Source of the DNA: Flammeovirgaceae bacterium
GTDB taxonomy: Bacteria; Bacteroidota; Bacteroidia; Cytophagales; Flammeovirgaceae
Reading direction: 5' to 3'
DNA: 38,031 nt
NCBI GenBank assembly: GCA_047633715.1
Contig: JBLIFI010000001.1
Span: forward strand, 1-38,031
Shown here: positions 7,201 through 36,673 of the stretch, piece by piece
Numbering within the stretch: position 1 is the first letter of the stretch
Layout: every line of letters starts with the position of its first letter
Notes under the pieces: model-generated
What the model was told of the DNA's origin: nothing
What the model saw: the letters and a program-made list of their open reading frames with translations, nothing else
The model's database searches: none
Made by a program: the position numbers and the translations under genes

Positions 7201-9349
7201 TAGTGAGCGAGGAAATTGCTGTAGACTCTGTACCTCCACCAGCAACCACATCGGAAGTGCCAGAAACTACTACCGCAGAACCAATGAGGGAAATATCATC
7301 TAAACACCAAATTTCACCTGTACTGTTATTATCAGTTTCGATTTTTAAAAATACAGTATTCCAAGCATCAGGAATACTTATGGTCAGTTTGGATTTTGCA
7401 TCATTTCCAGTTCGTGTCCCTCCACCAGAGTAAGTAAAGCCAAGGGGAGTTCCTGCTGTTGCAATTATTTCGCCCGTTCCACTCATTCCAAACCGTGCAT
7501 TGTTGTTTCCAATTACTGTAATGTCTGGTGTAACTCCAAAAGTAGCTGTTTCAGAAACATATACTTTCAAATCATCTCCTCCATCAATTCCATTTCCGGA
7601 AGTAACTGAAATGGAAGCATTCCAAATTTCAACGGAAACATTATTAAATGAAGAAATATTTTGACTTGCAAACTCTAAAGTAGAAGTAGTATTGGAAGAT
7701 TGGAATGAACTTGAGCCATTTCTCACACTCTCTCCAGAAGGAGTAAAATTACCTCCTGAATTCTCTGTACTTGAACTGAATCCAGTTGCAACCTCCCAAC
7801 CATCTGTAGCCGTTCCTTCAAAATCTTGAATCACAATGGTTGTGGGCGGACTGTTTACGGTTATTGAAGAACTAATTGCATCAGTCAATCCTGCGCCATC
7901 ATCTGCGGAGATTGTAAAACTCCCTGTGGCATCATTCTGTAAGTCTGCCCAAGAAGCAACTCCACTAGCAAGCGTTTTGATTAGCGTAGTTGTGGAAGTA
8001 AATGCTCCACTTCCCGAATTTTTGCTCAGGGTTATTGAAGAAGAGTTATTTCCTGTATCCACATTACCATTTGCATCGGTAGCAGAAATGCTCAGCCCAA
8101 AGTCAGTAGCAACATTTATGCTTGTCAGTACATTTGAGAATTGCAACTCGGTAGCGGCTACCTCAACCACATTTTCACTATCTGGCGAACTAACAGACTC
8201 ACCAGTTGCCAAGCCTCCTGCATCGAAGGTAAAACTGCCATTATCTACTTTAAATACAAAATCGCTTCCATCAATTGTGATAGAAAGCGGGCTGGGAATA
8301 TCGGTTCGTAGCCAAATTTTAAGTTGATAGGTTTTAGTGGAGCTTGCGATAATTTCGCCCAATTGCCCACTTCCATTAGAAATACTTCCGAAAGTAATAT
8401 TGGCAGCATTTATCGTTGCCAATATTGTGGAGTTAATTCCATCTGAGAGTTCTGCGCCTAAAATAGCCTCTGACCAATCGGCAATTTGATTACCTGTGCC
8501 TTGCTTGAAAATAATTTGACTGATTTGAGTAACTACCGCATCTTTTTCTTCATATGTAAAATCAAAATTTAAGGAAGAAGCTCCTTGCGTGTTTATCAGA
8601 GAGGAAACTGAAGAAGGTTCAGTTCCTGCTCCATCAGCAAGTGTGGAAGTTGTGGATGCTCCCAAAGTTACTGTCATAGAAAAATCATCAATGGCATATA
8701 TCCCATCTGAGCCAGCATCATTATTATCACTCCACCGAATCCATAAAGTAGCTCCATTTGACCAAGAAATTGAACTTGCCGAACCAGAAATGGTAGTCTT
8801 ATTAACAATATCATTTCCATTTACAGCACCGCCTGAAGTTGTGGCAGTTAGTTTTTCTACCAAATCCATACTAGAAATAGCCGTCCAAGTACCTGTAATT
8901 AAAGAGCTGGCATCAAGGCTATATTCAAAGGCAACAATTTCATTGGCGGTATTACTATTCCCACTTCTCCACTGCTCCATTACTCCTGCGAAATCTACCT
9001 GAGTGATTTCGATACCCGTATTATTTGTGAAATTCGCCCCGAATCTTGGAGAAATACTACCCGAAGCAATTGTCCCAATTGCTCGGTCAGCATCTCCAGA
9101 ACTACCTATATTATAAACACCTCCGCTAGTGGTCGTTCCAGTATTAACAGCAATTGTTGCGTCTGTACTTTCCCAACCTGTAATGAGTGCAGTACCGCCT
9201 GAACCCATTACATCAAAACTTTCAATATAAGTTAAATTTCCAGCTGTGAAATTAAATGCTTGTCCCCAACTTTCTCCAACTCCTACAAACAGCAATAGGG
9301 CAATTACTCCACATTTGCCTATTTTTCTTTTAGTAAACTCTAGTTTCAT
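4205..9349 (-). CDS. Giant (1714 aa) secreted adhesin-like protein with an LTD (lamin-tail) domain and a T9SS C-terminal sorting domain
   Basis: N-terminal signal peptide. Two pairs of internally duplicated modules. An LTD-like block IAEIADPNVSGATPKFVKLYNG...GQTFVI. A C-terminal beta-sandwich of about 75 aa (..GINLYFTSALQGKEFKVGVYNLSGKRVL..ILIVRVEGNKGVMTKKIFLNK) typical of a Por secretion CTD. Confidence 0.9.
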   Translation of the reverse strand: MKLEFTKRKIGKCGVIALLLFVGVGESWGQAFNFTAGNLTYIESFDVMGSGGTALITGWESTDATIAVNTGTTTSGGVYNIGSSGDADRAIGTIASGSISPRFGANFTNNTGIEITQVDFAGVMEQWRSGNSNTANEIVAFEYSLDASSLITGTWTAISSMDLVEKLTATTSGGAVNGNDIVNKTTISGSASSISWSNGATLWIRWSDNNDAGSDGIYAIDDFSMTVTLGASTTSTLADGAGTEPSSVSSLINTQGASSLNFDFTYEEKDAVVTQISQIIFKQGTGNQIADWSEAILGAELSDGINSTILATINAANITFGSISNGSGQLGEIIASSTKTYQLKIWLRTDIPSPLSITIDGSDFVFKVDNGSFTFDAGGLATGESVSSPDSENVVEVAATELQFSNVLTSINVATDFGLSISATDANGNVDTGNNSSSITLSKNSGSGAFTSTTTLIKTLASGVASWADLQNDATGSFTISADDGAGLTDAISSSITVNSPPTTIVIQDFEGTATDGWEVATGFSSSTENSGGNFTPSGESVRNGSSSFQSSNTTSTLEFASQNISSFNNVSVEIWNASISVTSGNGIDGGDDLKVYVSETATFGVTPDITVIGNNNARFGMSGTGEIIATAGTPLGFTYSGGGTRTGNDAKSKLTISIPDAWNTVFLKIETDNNSTGEIWCLDDISLIGSAVVVSGTSDVVAGGGTESTAISSLTTTTSLGDGYQTNFDFTVRDDGATAGTDALPALISQIIVNQGAGNDIADWTTVFSAVNLVSGSEMIAGAVNASNITFSSIPNGTGTALGFVGDNATKTYELKVVLQNLLPANTDNMNVAFVVDRNGFIVEASGSSGFETGAGTVVESGGGNNEIQIIATNLEIVSEPTSVFVNEDFSLTVNATDVRGNVDADATPSVTLARGATGTGTLSSATGLVQNLSGGTFTWADLQFDTEETFNISTSSILTDNTSDDIVANEIPQLIIAEIADPNVSGATPKFVKLYNGRNTTIDFDSETFFLSKQANGSTNPTAWFDLQLTGSILPGQTFVITDDATDFSNAYGSAANMANGNINGNGDDTYYIYEGGDHTSGTLIDIYGEINQDGTGEAWEYTDSRVVRIPNSSPNTIWVASEWVKTASPTNATLLSTVFTPLTHGYYTTPTGDLDALATWGTSLDGGDEKPTDFTTDNQQFYVLTNTSATVSANWTISGLNTELVIGNSVTATSFSVPASFSVVADNLVLTNASDITVVTNASLSANQSFTNLGTITVESGASFIQTATTPTNTGSGTYTMNRVGDDYHGIYNYWSSPVPDATIGGVFPTTNSKSRYMFDTSIPNWVGVGDGTTMTAGLGYIATGKSTPATTITRAFSSTTGFNSGDITASVINNAGGADDDWNLVGNPYPSSFSANAFLNDPSNSSINNGIHLWVSDGSDYSSISSDYAVMDAAGVTNGRGVFGAGENFVPAGQGFFVEANTTGTVTFKNSHRSDLNNGNFARAKDDNLQKIWLNVTANDGITNELSINFSEQATVGEDRMDITKFKGNKNLAFYSLLDKKELIVQGLPELIGSQKVKLGLDANESGKYEFNINHLLNFSENFDIFLLDKELGISTDLRAGNYVVQLESAIYKERFELEFVERVLSVDPSLELKGINIMADEMGINLYFTSALQGKEFKVGVYNLSGKRVLLENITSSDKEMISVKSYGILIVRVEGNKGVMTKKIFLNK

Positions 9350-10210: not shown

Positions 10211-12463
10211 ATGAATCATCATATAGTAAAAACGCTGTTTTTGTCTCTCGCTATCTTGATTTGGGGTAACGTATCCGCCCAAAAATCGCTCAAATACAAA
10301 GATATTTTTGAAATACTACAAAATGGGACACCCATAGAAGGCTTTCAGGCCTTGAAAGAGTTCCAAGAGCAAAATCCGAAAGGCGAGCCGAATGTCTATT
10401 ACCAGTTAGGCAAAACCTGCCAAAAATTCATGCGAGAGTATGACGCACTAAAAGAGACTGGCGATGTTGCTTTTTTCAGTCGGCATGCAAAAATCTACTT
10501 TGAATTATGCAACGCCAACCTCACAAAAGACGGATTCAACTCCACCAGGCCTTACTATGAAGACATAAAGCCACAGGAGGGAAAAAATAAAATACAGTTA
10601 GAAGATATAACTGCCGAAATCAAAAACAGACTGGAAGATGTTATATTATTCCGTGAGAACCATGCGAAGATGGTAGAGCATTTCAACGGAATGCTTGAAA
10701 ACTACAATGTTTGCCTAGAAGTTTTTATGGAAATCAACCAGAAAAATGCCAAGCTGAAAGACTTGCACTTGACTTCGGATGTTTCCTTCCTGAAAAGGCT
10801 AGACATACTCCAAAACCGTTATAGTTCAGCTATATCTCATTACGCATCTTATAAGGAAGTTATTGATAATTACTCTATCGGAGATTATCATCAGGAAGCG
10901 GATATTCGTCCAATTGAGACTTACAGGCTACAAGGTCTAAACCCGAGTAACTTCCTGAAAAACGAAGTAGAGGTTTGGAATTTTGGAAAATGGGTAAGTG
11001 ATTTCCGTCAAAAACAGTCGGAAGAAATTATCCCGCTAAGAAATGAGATTGTAGCAACCAATCAAAAACTAAATGCTTCCATTCGGGAACTGAGAAGTAG
11101 CACATCTTACTCTGATGATTTCGCATTCTACAAAGTCCCCAATGCGGTTCTTTTCAAAATTGGAAAATACCATTATCAGTCTCCCATTGTAGATTTATTC
11201 AATTTCAAGGAAAGCCAAGCAAGGCTTTTTACTTGGAGTAGAGAAGAGGTAAATAACCCGAGCAAAGAGGTTTTGGAATCGGTAAAAGGAAAGTTTTTGC
11301 TCAAATTGATTGCGCTTAAAAAAGAAGCTGACTCACTTAATTTAGTTGCCAAAAAATCATTTTCAATTTCCGATTTTGAGAAATATCCTGATTTCCTAAA
11401 GAAAGAATTTACTGATTTGGCTGGCTTACAAAGCTATCTCCAACAAGAAGAGAAAGAAAGTGATAAGGTTCTGGCAAACGCAATTCAGCAATGGAAACCG
11501 TGGTTGCTATTGGCAGAAAAACAAGCCACTCTACCCGATACGGCTACTTTGAGAAGGAAATCAATTCCCGTTTTCCGTAACCAAGATGAGATAAACTGGA
11601 ATAATCTATCGCTGAATAAATTTGATACTGCTCAATCCAACCAATACTACATTTCCTCTGTTTCCACTCAATCCAACAAGTATTTTTGGGTTTCAGGCTT
11701 TTACAAAAAACTGGGCAAAGTCCCCTACCCTGTTGTAGCAAAAATATACGATGCAGACACAGCAAAGTATATTGAAAAATTACTTGAATTCCCGCACAGA
11801 GATACCATAAGTAAATCGTTTCCGTTTGTGGAACGGATGAACAATGGGGCAATTTTATTGAAAACAGATTTGCTAGACACACTCCAACATACGCTTGTTC
11901 AAGTGGATAGTTTAGGGAAAATAATTCAGACTGACTCGGTTAAGGACATTCATGATGTACCTGTTTTGATGCAGTACGATGAGTTGAACGAACAAGTTTT
12001 ATTAGGATTCAAAGGCAAAGCTGACGATTATACGTATGCCGAATACGAGCCTTTCACGTTAAAGTTGCAGTCGAAATTGGGCAAAGAAATCTGGCAAACG
12101 AGTTTTGATTTGAAAGGAGAAGTAGTAGAAGTCTTGAAAAGTAACAGGCAATGGTTGGTGCTTGGAAATTATTCGGAAATAGAAATAGAAAATGAAAATG
12201 GGGTGGTGGCTTTTGCTCCGAAAAACCAAACGGGCACATTCATTGCTTTTATTTCTGAAAAAGGCGAGCTAGAAAAAATGATGACCTACCCAAAAGAATC
12301 AGGAATTTCCTTATTCCGTGGAATTAAGTTGGATAGTGAAAATATCATTTTATTGGGCATAAAAACTTCTGGGCTAGTCAAATCGGCAGTTTATCAATCA
12401 GACGAATCACTCTATTTTGGCTTGGTTGATTCGGAAGGGAATTTAGTTTTCGAGAATGAGTAA
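10211..12463 (+). CDS. Secreted hypothetical protein (750 aa), family not recognised
   Basis: Long ORF with a signal peptide (LFLSLAILIWGNVSAQ). The N-terminal part is helical, the C-terminal part is beta-rich. I recognise no motif. Confidence 0.75.
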   Translation: MNHHIVKTLFLSLAILIWGNVSAQKSLKYKDIFEILQNGTPIEGFQALKEFQEQNPKGEPNVYYQLGKTCQKFMREYDALKETGDVAFFSRHAKIYFELCNANLTKDGFNSTRPYYEDIKPQEGKNKIQLEDITAEIKNRLEDVILFRENHAKMVEHFNGMLENYNVCLEVFMEINQKNAKLKDLHLTSDVSFLKRLDILQNRYSSAISHYASYKEVIDNYSIGDYHQEADIRPIETYRLQGLNPSNFLKNEVEVWNFGKWVSDFRQKQSEEIIPLRNEIVATNQKLNASIRELRSSTSYSDDFAFYKVPNAVLFKIGKYHYQSPIVDLFNFKESQARLFTWSREEVNNPSKEVLESVKGKFLLKLIALKKEADSLNLVAKKSFSISDFEKYPDFLKKEFTDLAGLQSYLQQEEKESDKVLANAIQQWKPWLLLAEKQATLPDTATLRRKSIPVFRNQDEINWNNLSLNKFDTAQSNQYYISSVSTQSNKYFWVSGFYKKLGKVPYPVVAKIYDADTAKYIEKLLEFPHRDTISKSFPFVERMNNGAILLKTDLLDTLQHTLVQVDSLGKIIQTDSVKDIHDVPVLMQYDELNEQVLLGFKGKADDYTYAEYEPFTLKLQSKLGKEIWQTSFDLKGEVVEVLKSNRQWLVLGNYSEIEIENENGVVAFAPKNQTGTFIAFISEKGELEKMMTYPKESGISLFRGIKLDSENIILLGIKTSGLVKSAVYQSDESLYFGLVDSEGNLVFENE

Positions 12464-21710: not shown

Positions 21711-22117
21711 TTAAAGTTAACACCATAAATAGCTGTTCGCATTCAATTTTGGGGAAAGGAAAGTAAAATGGATGCTAAAGTTTAGTTGGATTGAATTTGG
21801 GATAAAAAGCGTTCAAATTAGCAAACCGCTCCCCAAAATTGGTGACACACGACCAGCTGGTTAAACTCTCAGGTGTTGAGACGAGTTTTGTGAAGACGGA
21901 TTTCTTCTCATCAACAAACGAGTTACTAAATCCAACAAAAAACACTTTCTACTTTTGAAGACCGATTGTTTGAGATAGTTTTTTTTTGCAGACTAAAACT
22001 GACGAAAAAAAAACATAAAATACTAAAAATCAGATTATTAAAAATTTAATAACAAACCACATTTCGTACATCTAAAATCGTACATCCACTTGGCACAAAG
22101 TGCTTAAATCAACAAAT

Positions 22118-24058
22118 ATGGGAGCAAAAGGCGTAAGAATTGCTGCATCGCAAAGCGAGCTGAATACATTCACGAAGTTTCTCCTTCGAGACATTCAGGC
22201 ACTAGACAAAATGCTCAAAGACGATTTGTTCGAGAAAGGGCAGATGATGATTGGCGCAGAGCAGGAAATGTGTTTGATAGATGAACATGGAAGACCCGCC
22301 CCGAAAGCGGTGGAAATGCTCAAATCACTCAACAACCCGAACTTTACCACCGAACTGGCACGTTTCAATTTGGAAGCTAATCTTGACCCAGTTCCTTTCA
22401 AAGACGACTGCTTTACCAATTTCGAGAATCAAATAAAAGGATTTATGGACGCATTTAAAACTGCTGCCGTAGAGCATGAGGTTGAACCTCTTTTAACTGG
22501 AATACTGCCCACAATCAGAAAATTCGATTTGGGAATTGAAAACCTCACTCCTATTGATAGATATTATGCTTTGATTGAATCTATCAATAAGTTGCGTGGC
22601 GAAGGACACCAGCTAAAAATCGAAGGCTTAGACGAATTGAATATCAAACAGACTTCTGCTCTGATTGAGGCCTGCAACACTAGTTTCCAAGTCCATTTGC
22701 AAGTCCGCCCCGATGAATTTGTACAGAAATACAATGTGGCACAGGCAATTGCAGCACCAGTTATGGCGCTTGCCTCTAACTCGCCCATGCTTTTTGGGAA
22801 AAGGCTTTGGAGCGAAACCAGAATTGCCCTTTTCCAGCAATCGGTAGATACACGAGTTACGGGAGACCATTTGCGTTATTCTAGCCCAAGAGTAACTTTT
22901 GGCTCTCGTTGGCTAGAAAATTCGATTTTGGATTTATATAAAGAAGACATAGTTCGTTTCAAAGCGCTACTTATTACTGATATTGAGGAAGATGTTCTCA
23001 AATTACTAGAAGAAGGAATCACTCCAAAACTCAAAGCCTTGAGCATTCATAATTCTACTGTTTACCGCTGGAACAGACCGTGTTATGGAGTAAGCCCGAA
23101 CGGAATGCCTCATTTGCGAATTGAGAACAGGATTCTTCCCGCAGGCCCAACCGTGGTAGATGAAGTTGCCAACTCTGCCTTTTGGATTGGTGTAATGAAC
23201 GGATTTGAAGATGTTTACCCAGATATTACAAAGGTGTTGGATTTCGATGATGCCAAATCCAATTTCTTGAAAGCCGCCAAAAATGGACACGGAATAAAAT
23301 ACAATTGGGTCAATAATAAACTCATTTCAGACCAAGAATTGATTGAGAAAGAACTTCTCCCAATGGCTCGTGCAGGATTGAAAAAAGCCAATGTCAACCA
23401 ATCAGAGATAGATAAATACCTCGGAATAATTGAAGAAAGAAATACCACGAGCAGAACTGGTGCAAGATGGATTGTAGAATCTTATGGGCAACTCATTAAG
23501 GAGTCGGGCAAAGAAGAAGCCGCTACTGCATTAGTGGCTGCCATGTTGCAGTATCAGAAAACAGAAAAACCAATCCACGAATGGGAATTGGCGCATATTA
23601 GTAGCATTGTAGATTGGACCCCTTCTTCGCTTTTGGTAGAAGAGTTTATGACTATCGATATTTTCACGGTTTCCAAAGAAGATATTCCCGATTTGGCTGC
23701 CGATATGATGGATTGGCAACAAATCAGATACTTGCCCATTGAAAGCAAAGATGGCGATTTGATTGGCTTACTGACTGTGCGTGGCTTGCTCAGGTATTTC
23801 TCCGAAAAATGCCGTGATAAAAAAGTAGGTGAAAAGAAAATTGGGGAAATGATGATTAAAAAACCCATCACAATCCACCCAGAAGCAACCGTTTTGGAAG
23901 CAATGGACATTATGCGTGAAAACAAAATTGGTTGCTTACCTGTAGTCAATAAATCCAAGTTAGTGGGAATGATTACTGAGGCGAATTTCTTGACTATTAC
24001 TTCGAGCTTACTGAAAAGATTGCAACGAAATAAGCAGTTGAGGAAGGGAACAAAGTAA
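22118..24058 (+). CDS. Glutamate-cysteine ligase family 2 (carboxylate-amine ligase)-like protein fused to a C-terminal CBS pair
   Basis: N-terminal IGAEQEMCLID.. followed by a GCS2-like core. The last roughly 140 aa contain two CBS-like units (TIDIFTVSKED...LIGLLTVRGLL and ITIHPEATVLEAMDIMRENKIGCLPVV..LVGMITEANF). I prefer the ATG at 22118 to the GTG at 22100. Confidence 0.72.
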   Translation: MGAKGVRIAASQSELNTFTKFLLRDIQALDKMLKDDLFEKGQMMIGAEQEMCLIDEHGRPAPKAVEMLKSLNNPNFTTELARFNLEANLDPVPFKDDCFTNFENQIKGFMDAFKTAAVEHEVEPLLTGILPTIRKFDLGIENLTPIDRYYALIESINKLRGEGHQLKIEGLDELNIKQTSALIEACNTSFQVHLQVRPDEFVQKYNVAQAIAAPVMALASNSPMLFGKRLWSETRIALFQQSVDTRVTGDHLRYSSPRVTFGSRWLENSILDLYKEDIVRFKALLITDIEEDVLKLLEEGITPKLKALSIHNSTVYRWNRPCYGVSPNGMPHLRIENRILPAGPTVVDEVANSAFWIGVMNGFEDVYPDITKVLDFDDAKSNFLKAAKNGHGIKYNWVNNKLISDQELIEKELLPMARAGLKKANVNQSEIDKYLGIIEERNTTSRTGARWIVESYGQLIKESGKEEAATALVAAMLQYQKTEKPIHEWELAHISSIVDWTPSSLLVEEFMTIDIFTVSKEDIPDLAADMMDWQQIRYLPIESKDGDLIGLLTVRGLLRYFSEKCRDKKVGEKKIGEMMIKKPITIHPEATVLEAMDIMRENKIGCLPVVNKSKLVGMITEANFLTITSSLLKRLQRNKQLRKGTK

Positions 24059-28009: not shown

Positions 28010-30886
28010 CTATCTCATAAACTCATCGAAAGTAAGCGAGATGTAGTAAAGAGAACCAATATTTGGCCCGCCCACATTAGTTACATACTCATCTCCGAAC
28101 AAGTTAGTAGCCCCTAACTTAACCATCGTTTTAATAGATTCAATTTTGTAATTGATTTGTGCATCAAGTGTAGAATAAGAATCTATGTCTCCAATTGCAA
28201 AGCTATTCTGCCAGAAGAATCCTTCTTGCCAACGATAAGCCAAATTGAAACCTAAGTTTTTCACAACTTCTCTGTTACTCAAAGAAACTTTAAATCTATT
28301 CTCTGGTGTATTGAAACCAGCTTCAAAGCCTGGATCCGCATCACCTTCATCGAAAGTAGCCCAGTTATAACTTCCATCAATTCTATAACCTTTTGGTAGT
28401 TGGTAAGCAACACCTAAACCAATTCCCTGTGAAGAAAGGTCATTTTCTGCATTTGTATAAGTTCTAAATGGACTTCCTGCTGGTAAAACCGTAGAACCTT
28501 GCGTAGTAGCAACTTTTGATATGACGTTTCTTTGAACAATAAAGTCTTGGTAACCACTATAATAGTAGTTCAAATCTAAAAGAACTTTTCCTTTAGCGAC
28601 CCTACCTTTATACCCAACCTCAAATGAGGAGAGTCTTTCTGGTTTTACATATTCTAATGCAATTGGCTGTCTTGTTGCTGCAGAGAGAACTCCTCCATCA
28701 GTAGCATCCAATGGGAATCCGTACAATTTATATCTTTCAGCATTTGCTGGTGTTCCACCAATCAAAGTAGTCGTTCCTAATGGAAAGAAGATAAATTGTG
28801 CTTGTGAATCTGGATTTCTAAAACCCGTTTGAAAAGAAGTTCTAAAATTGTGATTCTTACTTTCTCCAGCAGAATACACTATCGAAGCCCTAGGATTTAC
28901 TTGTCCATCAAAGTTTTCATTTTTATCATATCTGATAGAAGCAGCCAATTTTAATCTATCATCCATCAATTTTTTTGAAATCTGAGTATAAAACCCGTAC
29001 TCATTGATTTTAATTCTATCAAAATTACCATCTCCATCAGGATCTTCATTAAATACTGTTCCATTAGAAAACAAATCGTATTGTCTCCAGTTACCACCAA
29101 CCTGAATATCAACCACCTCAATTTGGTCAAATTGATAGTTGAATTCTGCATGATAAAGTTTAGATTCATCTACTAATTTTGCTCCTCCTCTTTGGAAAAG
29201 TGTGTTTCTAACTGTCTCAACTGCATTATTAAACTCAGCAGAACCAACTGCTGGTGTGCTAGCTTCCGCAGCAGCTCTTGCAAGAGCTGTATTTGCTACC
29301 AATGTTGTTGCAGGATCTCCACCAGCAAGTGCAGTTCCAAATTGAGTCCCAACTAAAGTACCTAAGTATGTTGGTATAAAACTAGTAGATGTCGCACTAA
29401 AAGATTCATTAGCAAGTGCTCCAACAGCAGATAAATTGTAGGAATCTCCTGCATCAGTCTGAGACATATAACCTCTCACAAAGAAGTTCGAGCCTTTCAA
29501 TTCTAGTTTATTGAAAGTCTGAGAAAAACCTCTTAAAGCATATCTCTCTCCACCTTGATAGATAGTAGATCCACTTCCTCTTCTGAAAGAATAACTAGCT
29601 TCTAAATTATCGTTGATTTTATAATGTAAAGCAGCAGATAATTTAATACTTCTTGCATCATTGTTATTGAGCAAATCTTGCTCATTAATCCCTCTTCTTC
29701 GTAAAGAAACCATACCTAAGGTGTCCATGAATGACGAAATTGCCATTTGTGTTGCAACGGTATCATTTCCAAACGCAGCAAGAAAATTTGGATTGTTAGA
29801 TAATGCACCTGATACTCCTGCATTCAAAGCAGCAATAGACCCAATGCCAGTAGTACTGGAAAAGAATGGAAGATTTACTAAGTTTTCATCTCCATATTGA
29901 TTCAAACCATCAAAAGTTTCGCTCCCTAATGCCCCAGAAGATGTTCCTGTAACATTTCTTCCTTCGTCATATCTGGTTGCTCTCCAATCTTCAGCATCTA
30001 ATATATCAACAGTTGCTTTAAATGCAAATTTATCATTGATTGCTTTCGCATATCTCACTCCAAAATTAGAATAAGGTGCCGTTCCACCTTCTTCAGAATC
30101 AGTTGCTCCGACTTTTACAGTAGCGCTTAAACCTTGATATTCAAATGGATTTTTACTATTCATAAACAGAATACCATTGAAAGCATTTGGCCCATAAAGT
30201 GCTGAAGCAGCTCCAGGAACTAGTTCCATACTTTCCATGTCCAACTCGGAAATACCCACGATATTTCCCGTAGGGAAGTTCAAAAGTGGAGAAGCGTTAT
30301 CCATTCCGTCCATTAACTGAACAAATCGAGTGTTGGCAACAGCAGCAAAACCCCTGGTATTGATTGAAGTAAAAGTCAAACTACCTTTTACAGCATTCAC
30401 ACCTTTCAAATTCTCCAGCCCATCATAAAAAGAGGGTGAAGCTGTTTGCTGGATATTGAGAATATCCATTTTCTCAACTGTTACTGGAGATTCCAAAATA
30501 CTTTCTTCTGTTCGATTGGCAGAAATGACTACTTCTTCTCCTAACATAACCAATTCTTCCATCACTACATCTAAAGTAGTAGTAGTGGCGGTTACATCCA
30601 TTTTTTGGGTGGTAAATCCAATCATAGAGAAGACCAATTTTGCAGGAACTTCGCTGACTTTGACAGAATAGGTTCCATCAATCTTTGTAACTGTTCCTTT
30701 TACAGTTCCTTCAATGACAATATTCACGCCTACTAAAGGTTCTCCACCATCTGCATCGGTAACTTTACCACTTACTGTGGTTTGAGCCATGGTAGCGTAG
30801 CTCATGAATAATAGCAACAGAACTACCTGTACGCTTGTAATGAGTTTTTTCATTTTAGAGTGAGTTTTAAATGGGTTCATTTTCAT
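28010..30886 (-). CDS. TonB-dependent outer-membrane receptor with an N-terminal carboxypeptidase-regulatory-like domain
   Basis: Signal peptide. CarboxypepD_reg block VSGKVTDADGGEPLVGVNIVIEGT..GT.T..DG.Y. Plug (PVTVEKMD, NTRGF). Long beta-barrel ending in an aromatic residue (..LTFDEFMR). An alternative start is at 30853. Confidence 0.92.
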   Translation of the reverse strand: MKMNPFKTHSKMKKLITSVQVVLLLLFMSYATMAQTTVSGKVTDADGGEPLVGVNIVIEGTVKGTVTKIDGTYSVKVSEVPAKLVFSMIGFTTQKMDVTATTTTLDVVMEELVMLGEEVVISANRTEESILESPVTVEKMDILNIQQTASPSFYDGLENLKGVNAVKGSLTFTSINTRGFAAVANTRFVQLMDGMDNASPLLNFPTGNIVGISELDMESMELVPGAASALYGPNAFNGILFMNSKNPFEYQGLSATVKVGATDSEEGGTAPYSNFGVRYAKAINDKFAFKATVDILDAEDWRATRYDEGRNVTGTSSGALGSETFDGLNQYGDENLVNLPFFSSTTGIGSIAALNAGVSGALSNNPNFLAAFGNDTVATQMAISSFMDTLGMVSLRRRGINEQDLLNNNDARSIKLSAALHYKINDNLEASYSFRRGSGSTIYQGGERYALRGFSQTFNKLELKGSNFFVRGYMSQTDAGDSYNLSAVGALANESFSATSTSFIPTYLGTLVGTQFGTALAGGDPATTLVANTALARAAAEASTPAVGSAEFNNAVETVRNTLFQRGGAKLVDESKLYHAEFNYQFDQIEVVDIQVGGNWRQYDLFSNGTVFNEDPDGDGNFDRIKINEYGFYTQISKKLMDDRLKLAASIRYDKNENFDGQVNPRASIVYSAGESKNHNFRTSFQTGFRNPDSQAQFIFFPLGTTTLIGGTPANAERYKLYGFPLDATDGGVLSAATRQPIALEYVKPERLSSFEVGYKGRVAKGKVLLDLNYYYSGYQDFIVQRNVISKVATTQGSTVLPAGSPFRTYTNAENDLSSQGIGLGVAYQLPKGYRIDGSYNWATFDEGDADPGFEAGFNTPENRFKVSLSNREVVKNLGFNLAYRWQEGFFWQNSFAIGDIDSYSTLDAQINYKIESIKTMVKLGATNLFGDEYVTNVGGPNIGSLYYISLTFDEFMR

Positions 30887-30973
30887 ACTAACAACCGATT
30901 GAAAACAATCGTATTGCCTAAATTCTTACTGAAATTAGGTAATGATTTTCACTCATGCAAAGTTGTAAGAATA

Positions 30974-32398
30974 TTATTTTTGCAATTCTTTCAGTATTTT
31001 TTGCAACTCTTCTGCATTATTCAGATCATTTTTTATAAGACTATCTAGTTTTCGTCCAATTTCCTCCATTTCTTCTCTTTTAAGAGAATCTTTCATATTC
31101 TTGAGAGATTTCGGGTCAAAATCAAACAGTTCTTTATTCCCGCCAGAGGAGGAATTACCACAGCAGCTTCCACAATCGCAATCACAACAAATATTAAAAC
31201 TACAACAATCAGAACTACCCGAATTACAACCCTTACAGTTACTACCTTCACATTTACAACTATCACAACAGCTTCCGCATCCATCGCCACATTGACTGCA
31301 CCCGTTTCCGCAATTACTACAATTATTGCAACAACTTGTACAAGGACAAACGCCTCCACCTCCTTTACAACAGCCTGTACAAGGGCAACCACCGCCACCG
31401 CCTTTACAGCAATTATCGCAAGGGCAATGTCCGCCATGGCAACAACATTGACTCATTTGCGGAGAGCCGTCACAGCAGACTCCTGAAATATCCACAAAAT
31501 CTGCCATTACCAATTGGAAAACGACTTCATCGGCTGGGGAATCGGTCATGAAAATGGGTTTGTTGCTTCTGATTTCCTGCTCCATTTTTTCAAGGGATTG
31601 GGAGAAAGCTTTCCAAAAGCTGAATCCAACTACCTCTGTTTTGTGCAATTCTGAATGAAGCGTTTTTATTTCCCGTTGGAGCTGGTTGAACTTGCTCAAT
31701 AGCCAATAATATTTATCCGAAACACTTTGCTGGTCTTTTTTCGCCTCGAAAATGATTGGATTGTATTGGTTCTCAAATAAATCTTCATCTAAATCCAACA
31801 GATGGTCGGAGACAGAAATAAGTTCACCTGTGAGTTGGAATAAATCTGCAATTTGGGAAAGTTCCTCATTTGAAGCAGAAGTTTTCTGCCCAATTTCCTG
31901 AACTGCCGAAGCGGAAAGCAAACCTGATTGGCTTCTCACATATTCATAGTCTGTGGAGTCGGTTTTGGTTAGGGAAATGTAGTTTTCCAAAACTTGTTGG
32001 AAGTTGTCTGACATTTTTGGCAGTAGTTTTTTTGCCTTTCCATCCATCCAAGCCTTTACAAGTCTCTTGTGGATCTTGGGTTTATCTACTTGCCAATCGG
32101 TTGCTTTTACCCAACCAAGCAAAACGGAGATTCTGGCTGCCACATCAATCGCTGGGTGCGAAGTCGCGTTGTTTTTTATGGTAAAAACAGCAGAAGGGCA
32201 TGGAGTTTTTATCTGTTCGCCCACCATATATTTCTCAAATGCCAGCAGCACAAGCGTCAATTCATTATTGATGAAAAGCGAGTCGAGTAAGCCATTTTGC
32301 TTTCGGAGACTGGCACAAATTGAGCAGTAAAAATTTTGATAGTTTGCCCTGGTTTCAGAATCCAGACTGCAAGTGGAAGGTTGGAGATGTCCGAGCAT
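30974..32398 (-). CDS. DUF5685-family protein with a 36-Cys Gly/Cys-rich insert and a C-terminal coiled coil
   Basis: The N-terminus MLGHLQP....Y.NFYCSICASLRK..G......NNELTLVLL and the later DHLLDLDEDLFENQYNP match my memory of the DUF5685 pattern (MFGYV.P..YCGLC..L). Residues encoded by 31136..31480 contain 36 Cys in 115 aa. No signal peptide. Confidence 0.8.
   Translation of the reverse strand: MLGHLQPSTCSLDSETRANYQNFYCSICASLRKQNGLLDSLFINNELTLVLLAFEKYMVGEQIKTPCPSAVFTIKNNATSHPAIDVAARISVLLGWVKATDWQVDKPKIHKRLVKAWMDGKAKKLLPKMSDNFQQVLENYISLTKTDSTDYEYVRSQSGLLSASAVQEIGQKTSASNEELSQIADLFQLTGELISVSDHLLDLDEDLFENQYNPIIFEAKKDQQSVSDKYYWLLSKFNQLQREIKTLHSELHKTEVVGFSFWKAFSQSLEKMEQEIRSNKPIFMTDSPADEVVFQLVMADFVDISGVCCDGSPQMSQCCCHGGHCPCDNCCKGGGGGCPCTGCCKGGGGVCPCTSCCNNCSNCGNGCSQCGDGCGSCCDSCKCEGSNCKGCNSGSSDCCSFNICCDCDCGSCCGNSSSGGNKELFDFDPKSLKNMKDSLKREEMEEIGRKLDSLIKNDLNNAEELQKILKELQK
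31322..31426 (-). repeat. 39-nt imperfect tandem coding repeat (2.7 units) inside the Cys-rich tract
   Basis: Units at 31388-31426, 31349-31387 and 31322-31348 encode CPCDNCCKGGGGG / CPCTGCCKGGGGV / CPCTSCCNN. Confidence 0.8.
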
Positions 32399-32479
32399 TA
32401 GAGAGTTGGTTAGCGTTTATCAAGTTTATTCTAACCAACAATTTCCTATTATTTTGCGGGAATTGCAAAATACCACTCA

Positions 32480-32914
32480 TTACCATTTCCCTTTTCTACG
32501 AATTTCCTGCCTTCTCATTGGCATTCCGTCAATCAAAGTAAAAAGGGTTGCGGTTGGAGTGAAATTTTCGTTTCTTGATTTGACTCCGCCATCCAATCCA
32601 ATCAGAATAATCTCAAAGCCAGACTTTGAACCTTTGTATTTGTTGTAAGTTTTATTGGAGGTTTCCCAACTTTCTAAATCCAACCCTTGCTTCATTTTTG
32701 TTGGAGTGGAAATATAGATAACCAGTTTCCGCTCACTCAATCCAACTTTGTGCTTTGTCAATTCTTCAATTTGCTTTTTCAGGATTGGGTTTTCCAAATC
32801 ACCTGCCAAAACAACTAAAACCCGATTTTCCCATTTGTGAGAAGAGATTTCTTGAGCGGTTGACATACAAGAACTGGTTAAGAGCAGAGAAAATAGGAGA
32901 GTTAATTTTAGCAT
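32480..32914 (-). CDS. Secreted DUF4174-family protein
   Basis: Signal or lipoprotein leader MLKLTLLFSLLLTSSC. Contains WENRVLVVLA, LSERKLVIY, FEIILIGLDGGVK and LFTLIDGMPMRRQE, typical of DUF4174. I prefer the start at 32914 to the ATG at 33010. Confidence 0.75.
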   Translation of the reverse strand: MLKLTLLFSLLLTSSCMSTAQEISSHKWENRVLVVLAGDLENPILKKQIEELTKHKVGLSERKLVIYISTPTKMKQGLDLESWETSNKTYNKYKGSKSGFEIILIGLDGGVKSRNENFTPTATLFTLIDGMPMRRQEIRRKGKW

Positions 32915-33080
32915 AATAGGCAAAAATTTATATTTAATTCGGCTAGAAGCCGACACCTTGCGCCACTCGCTAATAAGCGAGCGACAGATAAAATTCGAGG
33001 CACAAAACAAACTTTGTATCTCGAATATGGAAAATTTTGAACACTAACAATCTAGCCATCTGACAATCCAACCATCTATT

Positions 33081-36000
33081 CTATCTATCTATGATCACCT
33101 TTCCAGTTCTAGAAATAGTTGCACCATCGGTAAATGCTTGTACGGAGATTTTGTATATGTACAATCCATTTCCAAGTCGGCTTCCCGAATTTCCCGTTCC
33201 ATCCCAATCGAGAATATTCATTTGTGCCTCGGAATTAAAAAAATTGCCTTGGAAGGTGGAAACTAATTTTCCAGTCATATCGTAAATTTGTAATCCGACC
33301 GAAAGCTTGTCTCCTGCCCGATTGTGCGTGAAGGAAAATGTAGTTTGGTTTTGCATCGGGTTCGGGAATGCCAAGAGTGATTCGATTTTCAATTCGCCAG
33401 TTACCACAAAATCCAGTTCTATTTCCCTACCATTATTATGCGTATCGAAAACTGTAAACTTGAGTGTGTGCTTGCCAGGTTCTAGCGCATCGGGAATTTG
33501 GAATTGGAGATTTCCTTTTGTGAAATCATCTAAAACTGGCTCGAAAAACTCGTTCACTTCATACAAATACTCATCTTCATCTATGCTGATTGTCAAGTCG
33601 TGCCCAACTCCCAAACCTGTGAAGTTGAAACCACTTGCATCGGAAAGCGTGGCAATGACCAACGGCTGTCGGGAAACAGTTTGTCCATTTTGGAAATTCT
33701 CATCGTTCAGGAAAACGGCAGCAGTTGGAGCTTCAGAGTCGGAGGTCGGGTTTGAGCTACTTCCGCCAATCTCGAATAAGTAAAATCCACCTGCATCTTT
33801 ATTTTGCGTTTCATCTTTGGCGTAAAGGCTAATTTTACCTTCTCCCAATTGGTAATCAATATCTTTCGGGACTACCAAAGTGAAAGTAAATTCCCCATTC
33901 ACTACACTTGCTTTCCCTTTGAAAATCTCACTTTCTATGCTTTGGAAAGTCATTTGATTATTCTCGCTATCATCTCCTAAAGTGGTAATGCTCACAGGTT
34001 TCTCAAAAACCACCACATCCAACTCGCCATTGAAACTGCTTGAAATCATGCTATTTTCTTGTATTTCGCCACTTAGAATTACCTTATCTAGAGCGGAAAT
34101 AGAATTTGTGGAACTTCCACTCTCAAATTTCATCTCAGTAATTTTGGTCTCCAATTCTGGGTAAGCCAAACGCATGGAAGGATCGCCCAAGAGTGAAAAA
34201 TTACGGTTATTGACACCTTGAATTGAGTTATTTTTAGTGATTCGGATAACATCGCCAATTCTTGGCATTTCCCCATCAATTGGTTCAAAAACCGATTCGT
34301 AAAATGCCTTATTGATTGTCAAGTTCGAGGAAGAAAACACAGGGCGAGTGGTGGTTAACAAGCCGATTGCCCCACCAATTTCACTTTTCAAAGACAACTC
34401 CGCACCAGAAACTTGGCTTGGATCATCGTATCTGCCAAACTCGCAAGTGGCAGTTACCAACAGAGGCAAATTATCTAGATTATTCCAACTCTCAATATCA
34501 TTATTATTCAAAATATTCTCACTCGCCCAACCTCTTTCGTTACCATGCCCCGTAAAATTGATAATCAGCGAGCCATCCTCAGCAAACTTCTTAATTTTCT
34601 CTCGCATCACTAAAGAAGTTTTTCCCCCGTTCAAAATCACTTGCGGGTAGGCATCCACAAAAAGTCGATTTACGTTGTAGGTCGGATAACCCTCTTCGGA
34701 AATTTTGCCCAAAATATCTGCATGTCTTTGATGTGTGTTAAAATCGCCATCATCGGCTGTGAGTACAATATTTTTTCGCCACTTCCCTAAGCTTTTCAAA
34801 TTGGTAGTATAGCGAGTGAGTTTATTGACCATGGTTTGTGCTTCGGTCGGAGTTTTTGCAGGAAGTCTTCCTACACCAATTTCCAAGGTGTGCGTGCTGG
34901 TTGCCCCAGACTCTGCCCACTCGCCTTCATTAGTCTCAAAAAAGCCAAAATAATCGTCCGAAGAATAGGTACTGACAGGATTGAAAGAGTTTCTTGACTC
35001 GTAAATAGGCACGAAACTGCTCACTCCATCCTTGTAATTGTAGGAAGCATCTCCAAAAAGCAACAAATATTTCAGCTTGTTGGGTTCTTTCAAATACAGC
35101 ATTCTCGCAAAGTCCCGAATGGCGGAAACATCGGCTTTTCCAGCAGCAAATTCATTATAAACCGTTTGAGTTTCTACCACTTCCACTGTCAATTTATCAT
35201 GGTTTCTACGCAAATCTGCCAATTCATCGGCTTGTTGCCTAAACAACGGATGCGTAACAATTAGTAAGTTTGGAGTGGAAAGCCCGTGCAAATTTTGGTT
35301 TTGAATTTCGCTAATAGATTGGGGCGATTTTATAATTTCCGAAGGGTTGAAAACCACAAATTCCTTTAAACTCGAATTGGTTTCAACTTGGAATTCTCCA
35401 ATTGTGCCATTCAAATTAAAAGCCTGTTTTTTGGGTTGGAGTGGGTTGGAAATATCCCAAATTACTGAACTCGTTTTTAGGTTGGAGACCGTAAATTTGG
35501 AAATTGAATGGTTTAACGATTCAATATTTCGGAAACTGGTTTGTGCTCCGTAGAGTTTCAAAGTTCGCTTGGCATTGATGGCAATAAAATCCAAATAGCC
35601 TCTTGAACTCGAATTACCTTTATTATAGGTTAAGTCAATTTTGATTCCCGAATCGGTATTTAAACTACTCGAATTAAGTGAGAAAACTTGACTATTTGCT
35701 CTTGCCTGAACTACATAAACTCCATCGGGGCGAGAGTCCGCTTGGAGATTTCCCAAAGCACTTTCATTCAGTTTGAAATCGAAGCTACTTACTGCCGAGG
35801 AACGAGTCATCACCTGAATTTTTGCTCTGATTTCCGAATTAGGTACAATCCCTTCTAGTTGGAAATTGAAACTTTCTTCGGTATTGAAATTGTATTCATC
35901 GCTATACCAATCTCTGCCAGAAGTGAGCAGATTGAAGTTTTCGGGTTCAACATAGGCAATACCATCAAAATAATTTGCAGAGAAAGTCGAGCCTGTGATG

Positions 36001-36470
36001 TTGGCTTGTTCGAGAATTTGTGAGGAATTGCTGTTTCCAATTTTTAGGAAAACAGAATTTTTTGTGGAATACAAGTTCGTTTCTTTCAGAAGCACTTTCT
36101 CCGACTGGAAATAAGTGAGTTTATCTGCACCTTCGGCATAAAACAAGATAAAATCTCCTGCATCGAAGCTATTGTCTGCGCCACCAGAAACAAAAGTGAT
36201 GAAAGCCTGTAAATCATCTGTTCGGATTGCCGAATTAGCTTGTGGTAACATTCCGCCTTCATGCCCCAAAATCTGCACTTGGTTTGGGTTCACTCCATTC
36301 AAATTGACTCCATTGGAAGTCAAGAAATTATGGGAAATCTTATAAACTCCAGTTTCGGAAACTTCCAACTTATATAGTTTCCCAGTTGCCAACTTAGATT
36401 CGGTAGCGAATTGGGAGAAGGAAACGAAACTTTGGAGAATCAGAATAAATATGCCGATAAACTTCTTCAT
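33081..36470 (-). CDS. porU: Type IX secretion system sortase PorU (C25 peptidase-like)
   Basis: About 1130 aa with a signal peptide MKKFIGIFILILQSFVSFSQ. Contains LLLFGDASYNYKD, GVGRLPAKT, TADDGDFNTHQRHAD, FTGHGNERGW and LLVTATCEFGRYDDP (His/Cys catalytic contexts). It has its own C-terminal CTD-like beta-sandwich. I prefer the start at 36470 to the ATG at 36590. Confidence 0.85.
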   Translation of the reverse strand: MKKFIGIFILILQSFVSFSQFATESKLATGKLYKLEVSETGVYKISHNFLTSNGVNLNGVNPNQVQILGHEGGMLPQANSAIRTDDLQAFITFVSGGADNSFDAGDFILFYAEGADKLTYFQSEKVLLKETNLYSTKNSVFLKIGNSNSSQILEQANITGSTFSANYFDGIAYVEPENFNLLTSGRDWYSDEYNFNTEESFNFQLEGIVPNSEIRAKIQVMTRSSAVSSFDFKLNESALGNLQADSRPDGVYVVQARANSQVFSLNSSSLNTDSGIKIDLTYNKGNSSSRGYLDFIAINAKRTLKLYGAQTSFRNIESLNHSISKFTVSNLKTSSVIWDISNPLQPKKQAFNLNGTIGEFQVETNSSLKEFVVFNPSEIIKSPQSISEIQNQNLHGLSTPNLLIVTHPLFRQQADELADLRRNHDKLTVEVVETQTVYNEFAAGKADVSAIRDFARMLYLKEPNKLKYLLLFGDASYNYKDGVSSFVPIYESRNSFNPVSTYSSDDYFGFFETNEGEWAESGATSTHTLEIGVGRLPAKTPTEAQTMVNKLTRYTTNLKSLGKWRKNIVLTADDGDFNTHQRHADILGKISEEGYPTYNVNRLFVDAYPQVILNGGKTSLVMREKIKKFAEDGSLIINFTGHGNERGWASENILNNNDIESWNNLDNLPLLVTATCEFGRYDDPSQVSGAELSLKSEIGGAIGLLTTTRPVFSSSNLTINKAFYESVFEPIDGEMPRIGDVIRITKNNSIQGVNNRNFSLLGDPSMRLAYPELETKITEMKFESGSSTNSISALDKVILSGEIQENSMISSSFNGELDVVVFEKPVSITTLGDDSENNQMTFQSIESEIFKGKASVVNGEFTFTLVVPKDIDYQLGEGKISLYAKDETQNKDAGGFYLFEIGGSSSNPTSDSEAPTAAVFLNDENFQNGQTVSRQPLVIATLSDASGFNFTGLGVGHDLTISIDEDEYLYEVNEFFEPVLDDFTKGNLQFQIPDALEPGKHTLKFTVFDTHNNGREIELDFVVTGELKIESLLAFPNPMQNQTTFSFTHNRAGDKLSVGLQIYDMTGKLVSTFQGNFFNSEAQMNILDWDGTGNSGSRLGNGLYIYKISVQAFTDGATISRTGKVIIDR

Positions 36471-36673
36471 GCGATTTGGCGAGTTGAGTAAGTGATTTGG
36501 CAAATTTACGAAGGAATTGCCTAATTCTAAGAATCGAATTTTAAGCAAAATGGTTTCAAAAGGTGTATTTTTAGATAGGAGAATTAACATTTTTCAGTAG
36601 AATTGATTGGAAACCAAAAACCTCTACACTTAAAAAGCATAGAGAGCCAAGTTATATCAATTTGTTCTTCCTA

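Follow-up and report, generated by a model that had tools for sequence, protein, structure and literature searches.

Within a 38,031-nucleotide stretch of DNA from a Flammeovirgaceae bacterium (contig JBLIFI010000001.1; hereafter the window), a complete open reading frame (ORF) with an ATG start was identified on the minus strand at 30974..32398, which is predicted to encode a protein of 474 amino acids (aa); a preliminary description of the same DNA had reported this frame, and the strand is added here. The protein consists of an N-terminal DUF5685 domain, a cysteine (Cys) string and a helical end rich in Lys and Glu (K/E-rich), in that order. DUF5685 together with a Cys string was found to be a real, conserved and uncharacterised system, and the window gene is a high-Cys member of the clade in which the two are fused. 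The features of the gene are as follows:

31499..32398, minus strand: DUF5685 domain, residues 1-300 (Pfam, AF2 and Foldseek).
32387-32389, minus strand: H4, an extra potential ligand, present in 84 of 98 fused and 3 of 73 tail-less members.
32369..32371, minus strand: C10, an extra potential ligand, present in 86 of 98 fused and 7 of 73 tail-less members.
32315..32326, minus strand: C25-x-x-C28 (with Y24), two of the three invariant Cys, present in 171 of 171 members, fused and tail-less.
32198..32200, minus strand: C67, the third invariant Cys (170 of 171 members), in a beta hairpin predicted by AF2 at residues 61-80.
32084..32107, minus strand: K98-x-x-D101-x-x-x-D105, the first Asp motif, at the C-terminal end of helix 82-105.
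31757..31807, minus strand: D198-H-L-L-D202-L-D-E-D206 ... Y212-N213-P214, the second Asp motif, at the end of helix 177-201.
31160..31477, minus strand: Cys string, residues 308-413 (106 aa), with 36 Cys and 22 Gly.
31329..31412, minus strand: 39-nt tandem repeat within the string (TRF: period 39, 2.2 copies, 80% matches).
30980..31114, minus strand: residues 429-473, K/E-rich, with two helices predicted by AF2 and a recurring DSL motif.

The window protein matched Pfam family PF18937 (DUF5685) with an E-value of 3.8e-23 and 82.7 bits (curated gathering cut-off 26.7 bits), residues 1-248 aligning with profile positions 1-250 of 272; no match to the protein was returned by NCBIfam. Both the family assignment and the absence of a signal peptide had been proposed in the preliminary description and were borne out, the latter by the lack of any hydrophobic segment at the N-terminus (the most hydrophobic 19-residue window averages 1.41, measured with Cys scored neutral on P0001, a public protein that is 99.8% identical to the window protein and differs from it by Q21K).

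Conservation within the family was assessed on a MAFFT alignment of 171 full-length members, comprising 98 tail-bearing and 73 tail-less proteins. Residues M1, G3, Y24, C25, C28, C67, D101, D105, D198, D202, D206 and N213 were conserved in at least 99% of members, and the family-invariant set (an M-x-G N-terminus, YCxxC, a third Cys, two Asp motifs and Y/F-N-P) is present in its entirety in the window protein. In the first Asp motif K98 was found in 149, D101 in 170 and D105 in all 171 members, the motif reading DDWxD in several canonical members, while in the second D198 was found in 170, D202 and D206 in 171 each, and N213 in 169. The invariant C25, C28 and C67 are considered to form a separate putative metal or cluster site (hereafter the Cys3 site). 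It was also observed that tail-less members carry Y4 in place of H4 and have an apparently open Cys3 site, and that across the alignment H4 and C10 tend to accompany a Cys tail in cis; this could be a clade effect or could reflect a real coupling of the metal site to the location of the string.

Of the 40 Cys in the window protein 36 lie within the string, which is 34% Cys and otherwise rich in Gly, Ser, Asn, Asp and Lys, with 22 Gly, 13 Ser, 2 His and a single aromatic residue. Across the remaining 22 long ORFs of the window 43 of 10,261 aa are Cys (0.42%); with this gene included the 23 long ORFs have 83 Cys, 40 of which it contributes. The binomial tail probability of the string against the window Cys background is approximately 5e-58, and the string is therefore not explicable by composition alone. 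CC pairs were counted 10 times, CxC 6 times and CxxC 10 times. The tandem repeat encodes a 13-aa unit (CPCxxCCKGGGGx), present twice with a partial third copy, the units beginning at residues 325, 338 and 351. AF2 gave a pLDDT below 50 over residues 302-432, a region thus predicted to be disordered in the absence of a ligand, followed by C-terminal helices at 429-457 and 462-473 (pLDDT approximately 67-76); similar helical or charged extensions are present in many relatives. These results agree with the preliminary description as to the pairing of the Cys, their metallothionein-like density, the 39-nt duplication and the Lys/Glu-rich helix beyond the tract; its figure of 36 Cys was also correct, but the distance from the first Cys to the last is 106 aa and not the 115 residues given.

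When the string alone was searched against Pfam no family was returned even at E<=10, and the full protein returned no metallothionein (MT) family at E<=1. Against the PDB the string alone likewise returned no metallothionein, the best match being a hevein-type lectin (E 0.06) which was judged to be due to chance, and in a profile search of the PDB a single MT fusion appeared, below significance (E 2.2). The string alone also drew no match from a collection of 5.8 billion proteins, a search hampered by its low complexity, which the word index and bias filter do not tolerate. The phenomenological hallmarks of a metallothionein (high Cys content, CC/CxC/CxxC pairs, few aromatic residues or His) are all seen in the string; metallothioneins are also small stand-alone proteins, whereas the string is the C-terminal part of a protein of 474 aa.

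A search of 5.8 billion proteins yielded 64 homologues, all 64 of which carry PF18937 and whose named sources are Chitinophagales, Flammeovirgaceae, Microscillaceae and other Bacteroidota; eight loci, each in a member of the Bacteroidota, came from a scan of species-representative genomes. A C-terminal Cys-rich tail with 10-47 Cys was present in 61 of the 64 close homologues, and a sample from a representative library of 1.84 billion proteins contained 100 members whose tails have 6-47 Cys, with a median of 18, Cytophagales and Chitinophagales being the main sources. The Cys count of the window string lies toward the top of this range without being its maximum. The tract varies in length among the homologues collected, as the preliminary description had envisaged, but its statement that the tract is not part of the DUF5685 family is contradicted by the tails of these 61 close homologues and of about 100 representatives.

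The window gene was compared with that of its 80%-identical relative P0002 (contig L001), the N-terminal domains giving a dN/dS of 0.095. In the string 31 of 34 aligned Cys were kept, 17 of them with synonymous TGT/TGC changes, while non-Cys positions were identical at 29 of 56 and several indels were present. As the Cys are kept through synonymous codon changes while the spacers drift, the string is an old, selected module, and its Cys residues are, by this codon comparison, under purifying selection. P0002 lacks one of the 13-aa units present in the window protein, and the string of P0005 consists of about five CDCCKGGGGG units, observations which support an evolution of string length through gain and loss of short repeats. 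The earlier view of the tract as a recent, expandable insert can thus be kept as regards expansion, whereas the tract is old rather than recent and, lying C-terminal to the domain, is no insert. As a separate observation, the annotated end of P0002 falls right after the Cys tract (L001:11150-11500), and the K/E-rich helical end (NMKDSMKIEEVEEIAQKLDSLAKNDPENAEELKKMLKDLRK) remains encoded in L001 in another frame, part of it being called as a separate 40-aa gene; the shortened end is a frameshift or assembly error in L001 and no genuine loss of the tail end.

Strings of other clades differ in their setting. In proteins starting MVGN or MIGN (P0085, P0087, P0089, P0097 and P0100) the string is directly preceded by a hydrophobic segment, often with a lipobox-like L-x-[GAS]-C at its end, and those starting MFGT (P0137, P0148 and P0161) have a transmembrane-like helix, a Ser/Gly/Pro linker of approximately 120 aa and (CGDxCxx)n repeats. 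A K/R-rich stretch was found at the tail terminus in 22 of 67 tails. These hydrophobic, transmembrane-like, lipobox-like and polybasic features are hints of membrane association of the string. No hydrophobic segment was found beside the string of the window protein, in which, beyond residue 240, no 19-residue stretch exceeds a mean hydrophobicity of 1.23.

Canonical DUF5685 members, from Clostridia, are proteins of approximately 280 aa which start MFGY and have no tail. In the first two such loci read, the DUF5685 gene overlaps a downstream gene for a J-domain/TPR protein of approximately 195 aa whose C-terminus is itself a Cys string, for example DCSLCNFCSTLLCMNMCCNCCR and LCRTCQALWCADCCCECCGGDLIRCC. 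A metagenome scan provided 80 further canonical loci, 70 of which had enough downstream sequence to be scored; the next ORF encoded a J-domain protein in 68 of the 70, with an overlap usually of 4-19 nt, and at least 5 Cys were present in the last 35 aa in 66 of these 68 proteins (41 distinct tails). The 120 closest homologues of one J-protein all had 8-11 C-terminal Cys and shared the motif CxxCQxLxCADCCCECMGGDLIxCC, their named sources being Christensenellales, Clostridiaceae, Bacillota and Oxobacter pfennigii. A third gene, encoding a protein of approximately 175 aa with at least 3 transmembrane-like segments, was present in 19 of 28 distinct loci; no Pfam family was assigned to its product, a similarity to DUF2232 being below threshold, and its identification as an energy-coupling factor (ECF) S-component was considered and rejected since it has no similarity to the ECF protein of the same locus.

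A reciprocal check was performed from three J-domain/Cys-string proteins on long contigs. DUF5685 overlapped them upstream in 3 of 3 cases, and a small unannotated protein of 158-173 aa was encoded downstream in the same three loci, whose flanks were wholly different (trp genes; uvrAB; MFS/FGGY). Because the three genes are kept together among unrelated flanks, the cassette is taken to be a unit and not inherited synteny. Common flanking genes (cdaA, cdaR, yicC, gmk and a NifS-like gene, identified by visual inspection of representative sequences) were considered as functional partners and rejected as housekeeping synteny, differently flanked loci keeping the three-gene core only. No homologue of the J-domain/Cys-string protein was found in the window or in the Bacteroidota loci and the window protein has no DnaJ domain, so that the window gene does not fit the three-gene definition of the cassette, the string being present in cis instead.

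DUF5685 is accordingly tied, as gene arrangement indicates, to a Cys string in cis in Bacteroidota or in trans in Clostridia. This fusion-versus-operon pattern is the strongest evidence available that domain and string work together, and the comparisons support a functional link between the two, with both under selection. The Clostridial link is further argued to make the tail a dedicated partner of DUF5685 rather than a free-standing metal store.

The structure of the window protein was modelled with AF2 from a 43-sequence alignment. Over most of residues 11-280 the pLDDT exceeded 90, falling to approximately 80 at both ends of the domain, and residues 1-300 were predicted to be all-alpha apart from the single beta hairpin at 61-80. 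When the model was compared with the PDB using Foldseek, every one of the 50 matches listed was a class I isoprenoid synthase, a terpene cyclase or a UbiA-type prenyltransferase. They included the prenyl diphosphate synthases Rv0562 and E. coli OPPS together with cyclases such as that for aristolochene; UbiA homologues and a CrtM-like enzyme were also listed. The best of the matches listed was 9kuq (E 3.9e-4), with E-values among them ranging from 4e-4 to 0.03, target-normalised TM scores of 0.5-0.55 and sequence identities of 8-14%.

Helix D of class I synthases bears the DDxxD motif, and helix H bears the NSE/DTE motif with its i/i+4/i+8 spacing, a spacing also shown by D198, D202 and D206. 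In the model of DUF5685 the two Asp-motif helices are separated by helices 109-128, 131-145 and 151-170, and the predicted helix order matches the class I order D, E, F, G, H with the Asp motifs at D and H. The motifs themselves (D101xxxD105 and D198xxxD202xxxD206) are found at the ends of the equivalent helices, and both deviate from the class I consensus. No sequence-profile link to isoprenoid families (polyprenyl_synt, Terpene_synth_C, SQS_PSY and related families) was found in Pfam at E<=1 to 10, in permissive scans which covered the window protein and 16 canonical members and in which DUF5685 was the sole family returned; a profile of the fused clade matched no natural structure among PDB sequences. 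A canonical DUF5685 profile matched designed helical repeat proteins in the PDB, which were regarded as spurious. As no sequence-profile method connects DUF5685 to the class I enzymes, fold and motif position are the whole basis of the relationship, on which the DUF5685 domain looks like an enzyme of class-I isoprenoid-synthase-type alpha-helical fold.

Taken together with the string, this suggests that the window gene product would be a cytoplasmic two-module protein. The first module (residues 1-300) would be an enzyme-like domain of class-I fold in which D101/D105, D198/D202/D206 and N213 are placed like Mg2+/diphosphate-binding motifs, and which would also hold the Cys3 site (C25/C28/C67), extended by H4 and C10 in the window clade. 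The second (308-413) would be the string in cis, corresponding to the one that tail-less DUF5685 of Clostridia may receive in trans from a J-domain/TPR co-chaperone. The string may fold around metal-thiolate or iron-sulfur (Fe-S) clusters and, being tethered, either store cofactor for the Cys3 site or hand it over to that site; once fused, the protein would no longer require a chaperone. Cys/His-rich tails serve SlyD and HypB, and the J-protein HscB escorts the Fe-S scaffold IscU. A role of the string as a metal- or cluster-thiolate module in the service of the DUF5685 domain is tentatively favoured, since its composition, predicted disorder in the apo state, Cys-only conservation and repeat-scaled capacity match those of metallothioneins, and in view of the SlyD/HypB tails, the HscB-IscU parallel and the invariant Cys3 site; capacity changes driven by repeats also fit a stoichiometric ligand-binding role.

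Several points weigh against this proposal. The tract matches no metallothionein family in the Pfam and PDB searches, and a preformed metal-site fold was predicted by AF2 neither for the window tail nor for the Clostridial string. Metal or cluster binding and activity are putative, and the fold similarity is modest (E 4e-4, TM score approximately 0.5, identity 8-14%) and without support at the sequence level. It is not evident why an active site of Mg/diphosphate type would require a large thiolate reservoir, and the hydrophobic, transmembrane-like, lipobox and polybasic features near the string in other clades, together with the membrane protein of the cassette, point to a membrane association which the proposal leaves unexplained. 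AF2 was also applied to a Clostridial J-protein in search of a metal-site fold in its Cys string; the result was of low confidence and did not discriminate between the possibilities.

It is on these last features that a different reading draws, according to which DUF5685 would be a protein-cysteine S-alkyl (prenyl) transferase and the Cys string its substrate: a prenyl diphosphate would be ionised at the class-I site with the help of a Mg2+ cluster, the Cys3 site, with Zn bound, would activate a thiolate of the string, and the lipidated string would anchor either the DUF5685 protein itself (Bacteroidota) or the J-protein (Clostridia) to the membrane. Alkylation of Zn-bound thiolates has precedent in protein farnesyltransferase and other Zn-thiolate alkyltransferases, and ComQ, an enzyme of prenyl-synthase fold, prenylates peptides. 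The class-I fold with both Asp motifs invariant and the open Cys3 site of tail-less members are consistent with such a transferase, as are the hydrophobic or transmembrane-like segments just before the string in P0087, P0088, P0097, P0148 and P0161, the K/R-rich ends (22/67 tails) and the membrane protein encoded by the third cassette gene (19/28 loci); a J domain with a C-terminal hydrophobic Cys string recalls the architecture of CSP/DNAJC5, and the conserved non-Cys residues of the Clostridial string (CADCCCECMGGDLI) might mark it for recognition. Lipidation of this kind is, however, without known bacterial precedent, and an enzyme fused to its own substrate would be limited to a single turnover. 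The window tract, which is long (36 Cys), hydrophilic and rich in Gly, Ser and Asn, does not resemble a lipid anchor, has nearly every Cys conserved and is without an adjoining hydrophobic segment (maximum 1.23 after residue 240), and isoprenoid genes were not found nearby. S-prenylation of the string is hence regarded as rather unlikely, and it is a little more doubtful again that DUF5685 represents a new class of bacterial S-prenyl (alkyl) transferases lipidating their own tail (Bacteroidota) or the string of a J-protein (Clostridia).

Were the tail instead a generic metallothionein-type sink for the detoxification or buffering of Zn, Cu or Cd, independent of DUF5685, its classical MT-like composition and motifs, its disorder in the apo state and its repeat-driven changes in capacity would follow, and the host proteome is so poor in Cys that the window protein would dominate its thiol-based metal capacity. 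An independent sink would not be expected to be tied to DUF5685 in several clades or to belong to an overlapping operon partner in Clostridia; with no metal-resistance or sensor genes adjacent in five contexts, and no relationship to SmtA/BmtA or other MT families, this role is improbable. Slightly less probable still is a redox or sulfur module, either a disulfide sensor or sink or a carrier of persulfide or polysulfide loaded and unloaded by the DUF5685 domain. The high thiol density speaks for it, as do a class V aminotransferase resembling cysteine desulfurases, encoded upstream in 11 of the 28 Clostridial loci, and a GCS2+CBS gene approximately 7 kb away in the window and L001, but these neighbours amount to housekeeping synteny and are absent from other contexts; the family is present in strict anaerobes and aerobes alike, and no link to rhodanese, thioredoxin or sulfurtransferase was seen. 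An origin of the tract in misassembly or misannotation of low-complexity DNA, or its decay into a non-functional tail, could be suspected from its repeat-containing DNA and from the frameshift just after the tract in the contig of the close relative. The frame is nonetheless open through 36 TGY codons, a 99.8%-identical protein occurs in independent collections, some 100 independent relatives from many assemblies have such tails and the Cys codons are conserved with synonymous changes, by which this explanation, given very little credence here, is effectively refuted.

The window protein can be set beside several known systems. Canonical Clostridial DUF5685 proteins have a homologous N-terminal domain with M1, G3, Y24-C25-x-x-C28, C67, D101, D105, D198, D202, D206 and N213 in common, but place the string on the downstream J-domain/TPR protein, whereas the window clade adds H4, C10, a string of 6-47 Cys and a variable charged or helical end. 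With class I isoprenoid synthases (Rv0562, E. coli IspB, aristolochene synthase, ComQ) DUF5685 shares the predicted all-alpha fold, and it has two acidic motifs at the ends of helices corresponding in order to helices D and H. Motif 1 is DxxxD, the class I DDxxD being found only in several canonical members, motif 2 is D-x3-D-x3-D in place of (N/D)Dxx(S/T)xxxE, the spacing between the motifs is approximately 30 residues shorter, and the Cys3 site and Cys string have no counterpart in the synthases.

Metallothioneins (SmtA/BmtA, MymT and eukaryotic forms) resemble the string in being about one third Cys, in their CC/CxC/CxxC pairs with almost no aromatic residues or His, in being disordered without metal, in conserving Cys while spacers drift and in repeat duplication. 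The window string differs in its 106 aa at 34% Cys, in its attachment and evolutionary tie to an enzyme-like domain of 300 aa and in lacking homology to any MT family, and its metal binding is putative. Canonical bacterial MTs are approximately 60 aa with approximately 16% Cys (PMC13578184). The same work reports a Runella 'TrxA' thioredoxin-metallothionein chimera 96% identical to Citrobacter Trx and 98% to Synechococcus SmtA; this looks like a Trx-tag expression construct in an assembly rather than a native Cytophagales gene, and its MT part is SmtA-type and unrelated to the window tract.

CSP/DNAJC5 and the Clostridial DUF5685 partner both have an N-terminal J domain and a dense, partly hydrophobic Cys string. 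The Clostridial string is C-terminal, following the TPR repeats, and the similarity is one of architecture, the strings not being homologous; the window protein differs further in having no J domain. The CSP string is S-palmitoylated by DHHC enzymes, which to our knowledge are lacking in bacteria. In the SlyD tail, HypB, UreE, the DnaJ zinc finger (CxxCxGxG) and HscB-IscU, a flexible Cys/Gly-rich segment likewise accompanies a catalytic or chaperone domain, and the involvement of a J-protein in the Clostridial case adds to the likeness. The window string has far more Cys (36) than SlyD, HypB, UreE or HscB-IscU and no His-rich part, and no genomic link to hydrogenase, urease or ISC/SUF genes was found at the inspected loci.

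No paper on the function of DUF5685 was found in the literature, the single mention being in a domain list for C. difficile, nor was any paper found on bacterial Cys-string J-proteins. The family is widespread, with 399 clusters at 50% identity (single-sequence search) in gut Clostridia and environmental Bacteroidota, and the Clostridial J/TPR/Cys-string family, currently annotated merely as 'molecular chaperone DnaJ', would gain a context. The class-I-like fold of the N-terminal domain and the link to the Clostridial Cys-string J-protein are new here, both having been missed by the preliminary description. DUF5685 thereby gains a testable shape, comprising an enzyme-like class-I fold, intact acidic motifs, an invariant Cys3 site and an obligate association with a Cys string, and the fused Bacteroidota proteins offer the simplest single-polypeptide entry point for biochemistry. 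If the metal/cluster reading is true, a dedicated metal- or cluster-handling module wired to Hsp70 would be new; if S-prenylation is true, the system would be a bacterial analogue of lipid-anchored CSP and a previously unknown kind of bacterial protein lipidation.

The window gene is a stand-alone fusion flanked by genes for a DUF4174 protein and a TonB-dependent receptor. Its neighbourhood (C25 peptidase, DUF4174, TonB receptor) is shared by the closest relative only, and as four more distant contexts are unrelated, nothing was inferred from the neighbouring genes. No metal-resistance or metal-sensor genes adjoin the fused gene in five different contexts, and no isoprenoid genes were found near the DUF5685 loci inspected. 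A promoter and terminator scan around the gene gave counts equal to the shuffled expectation, using a consensus ill-suited to Bacteroidota. A protein with GCS2 (glutamate-cysteine ligase family 2) and CBS domains is encoded at window 22100-24058 (plus strand) and at L001:17982-19922, approximately 7 kb from the DUF5685 gene in the window and its closest relative, and was absent from the more distant contexts; it may have a connection with the supply of thiol or cysteine. In L004:6288-11654 (Bacteroidota) and L016:2826-5978 (Clostridial) an FHA-domain protein and a penicillin-binding protein (PBP) or FtsW/RodA adjoin DUF5685, and a class A PBP lies downstream of it in L014, which may be coincidence or a loose tie to cell-wall (undecaprenyl-lipid) metabolism.

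Elsewhere in the window, no Pfam match at E<=1e-5 was returned for a 1714-aa ORF (4205-9349, minus strand) or a 750-aa ORF (10211-12463, plus strand). ORFs of 41-114 aa overlap the Cys tract in other frames on both strands between 31093 and 31486, for example 31093-31437 (minus), 31101-31295 (plus) and 31292-31486 (plus); these are by-products of long TGY/GGN codon runs and do not indicate genes. The window proteins are unusually poor in Cys, with none in the TonB receptor (958 aa) and one in the C25 peptidase (1169 aa). The genes at 28010-36590 are of Bacteroidota type, including a PorU-like Peptidase_C25 with a type IX secretion system (T9SS) C-terminal sorting domain and a CarboxypepD_reg TonB receptor. 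P0001 is labelled by NCBI as 'Arenicella sp.', a gammaproteobacterium; given these Bacteroidota-type genes and the fact that all homologues are from Cytophagales or Chitinophagales, the metagenome-assembled genome bin behind this label was probably mis-assigned.

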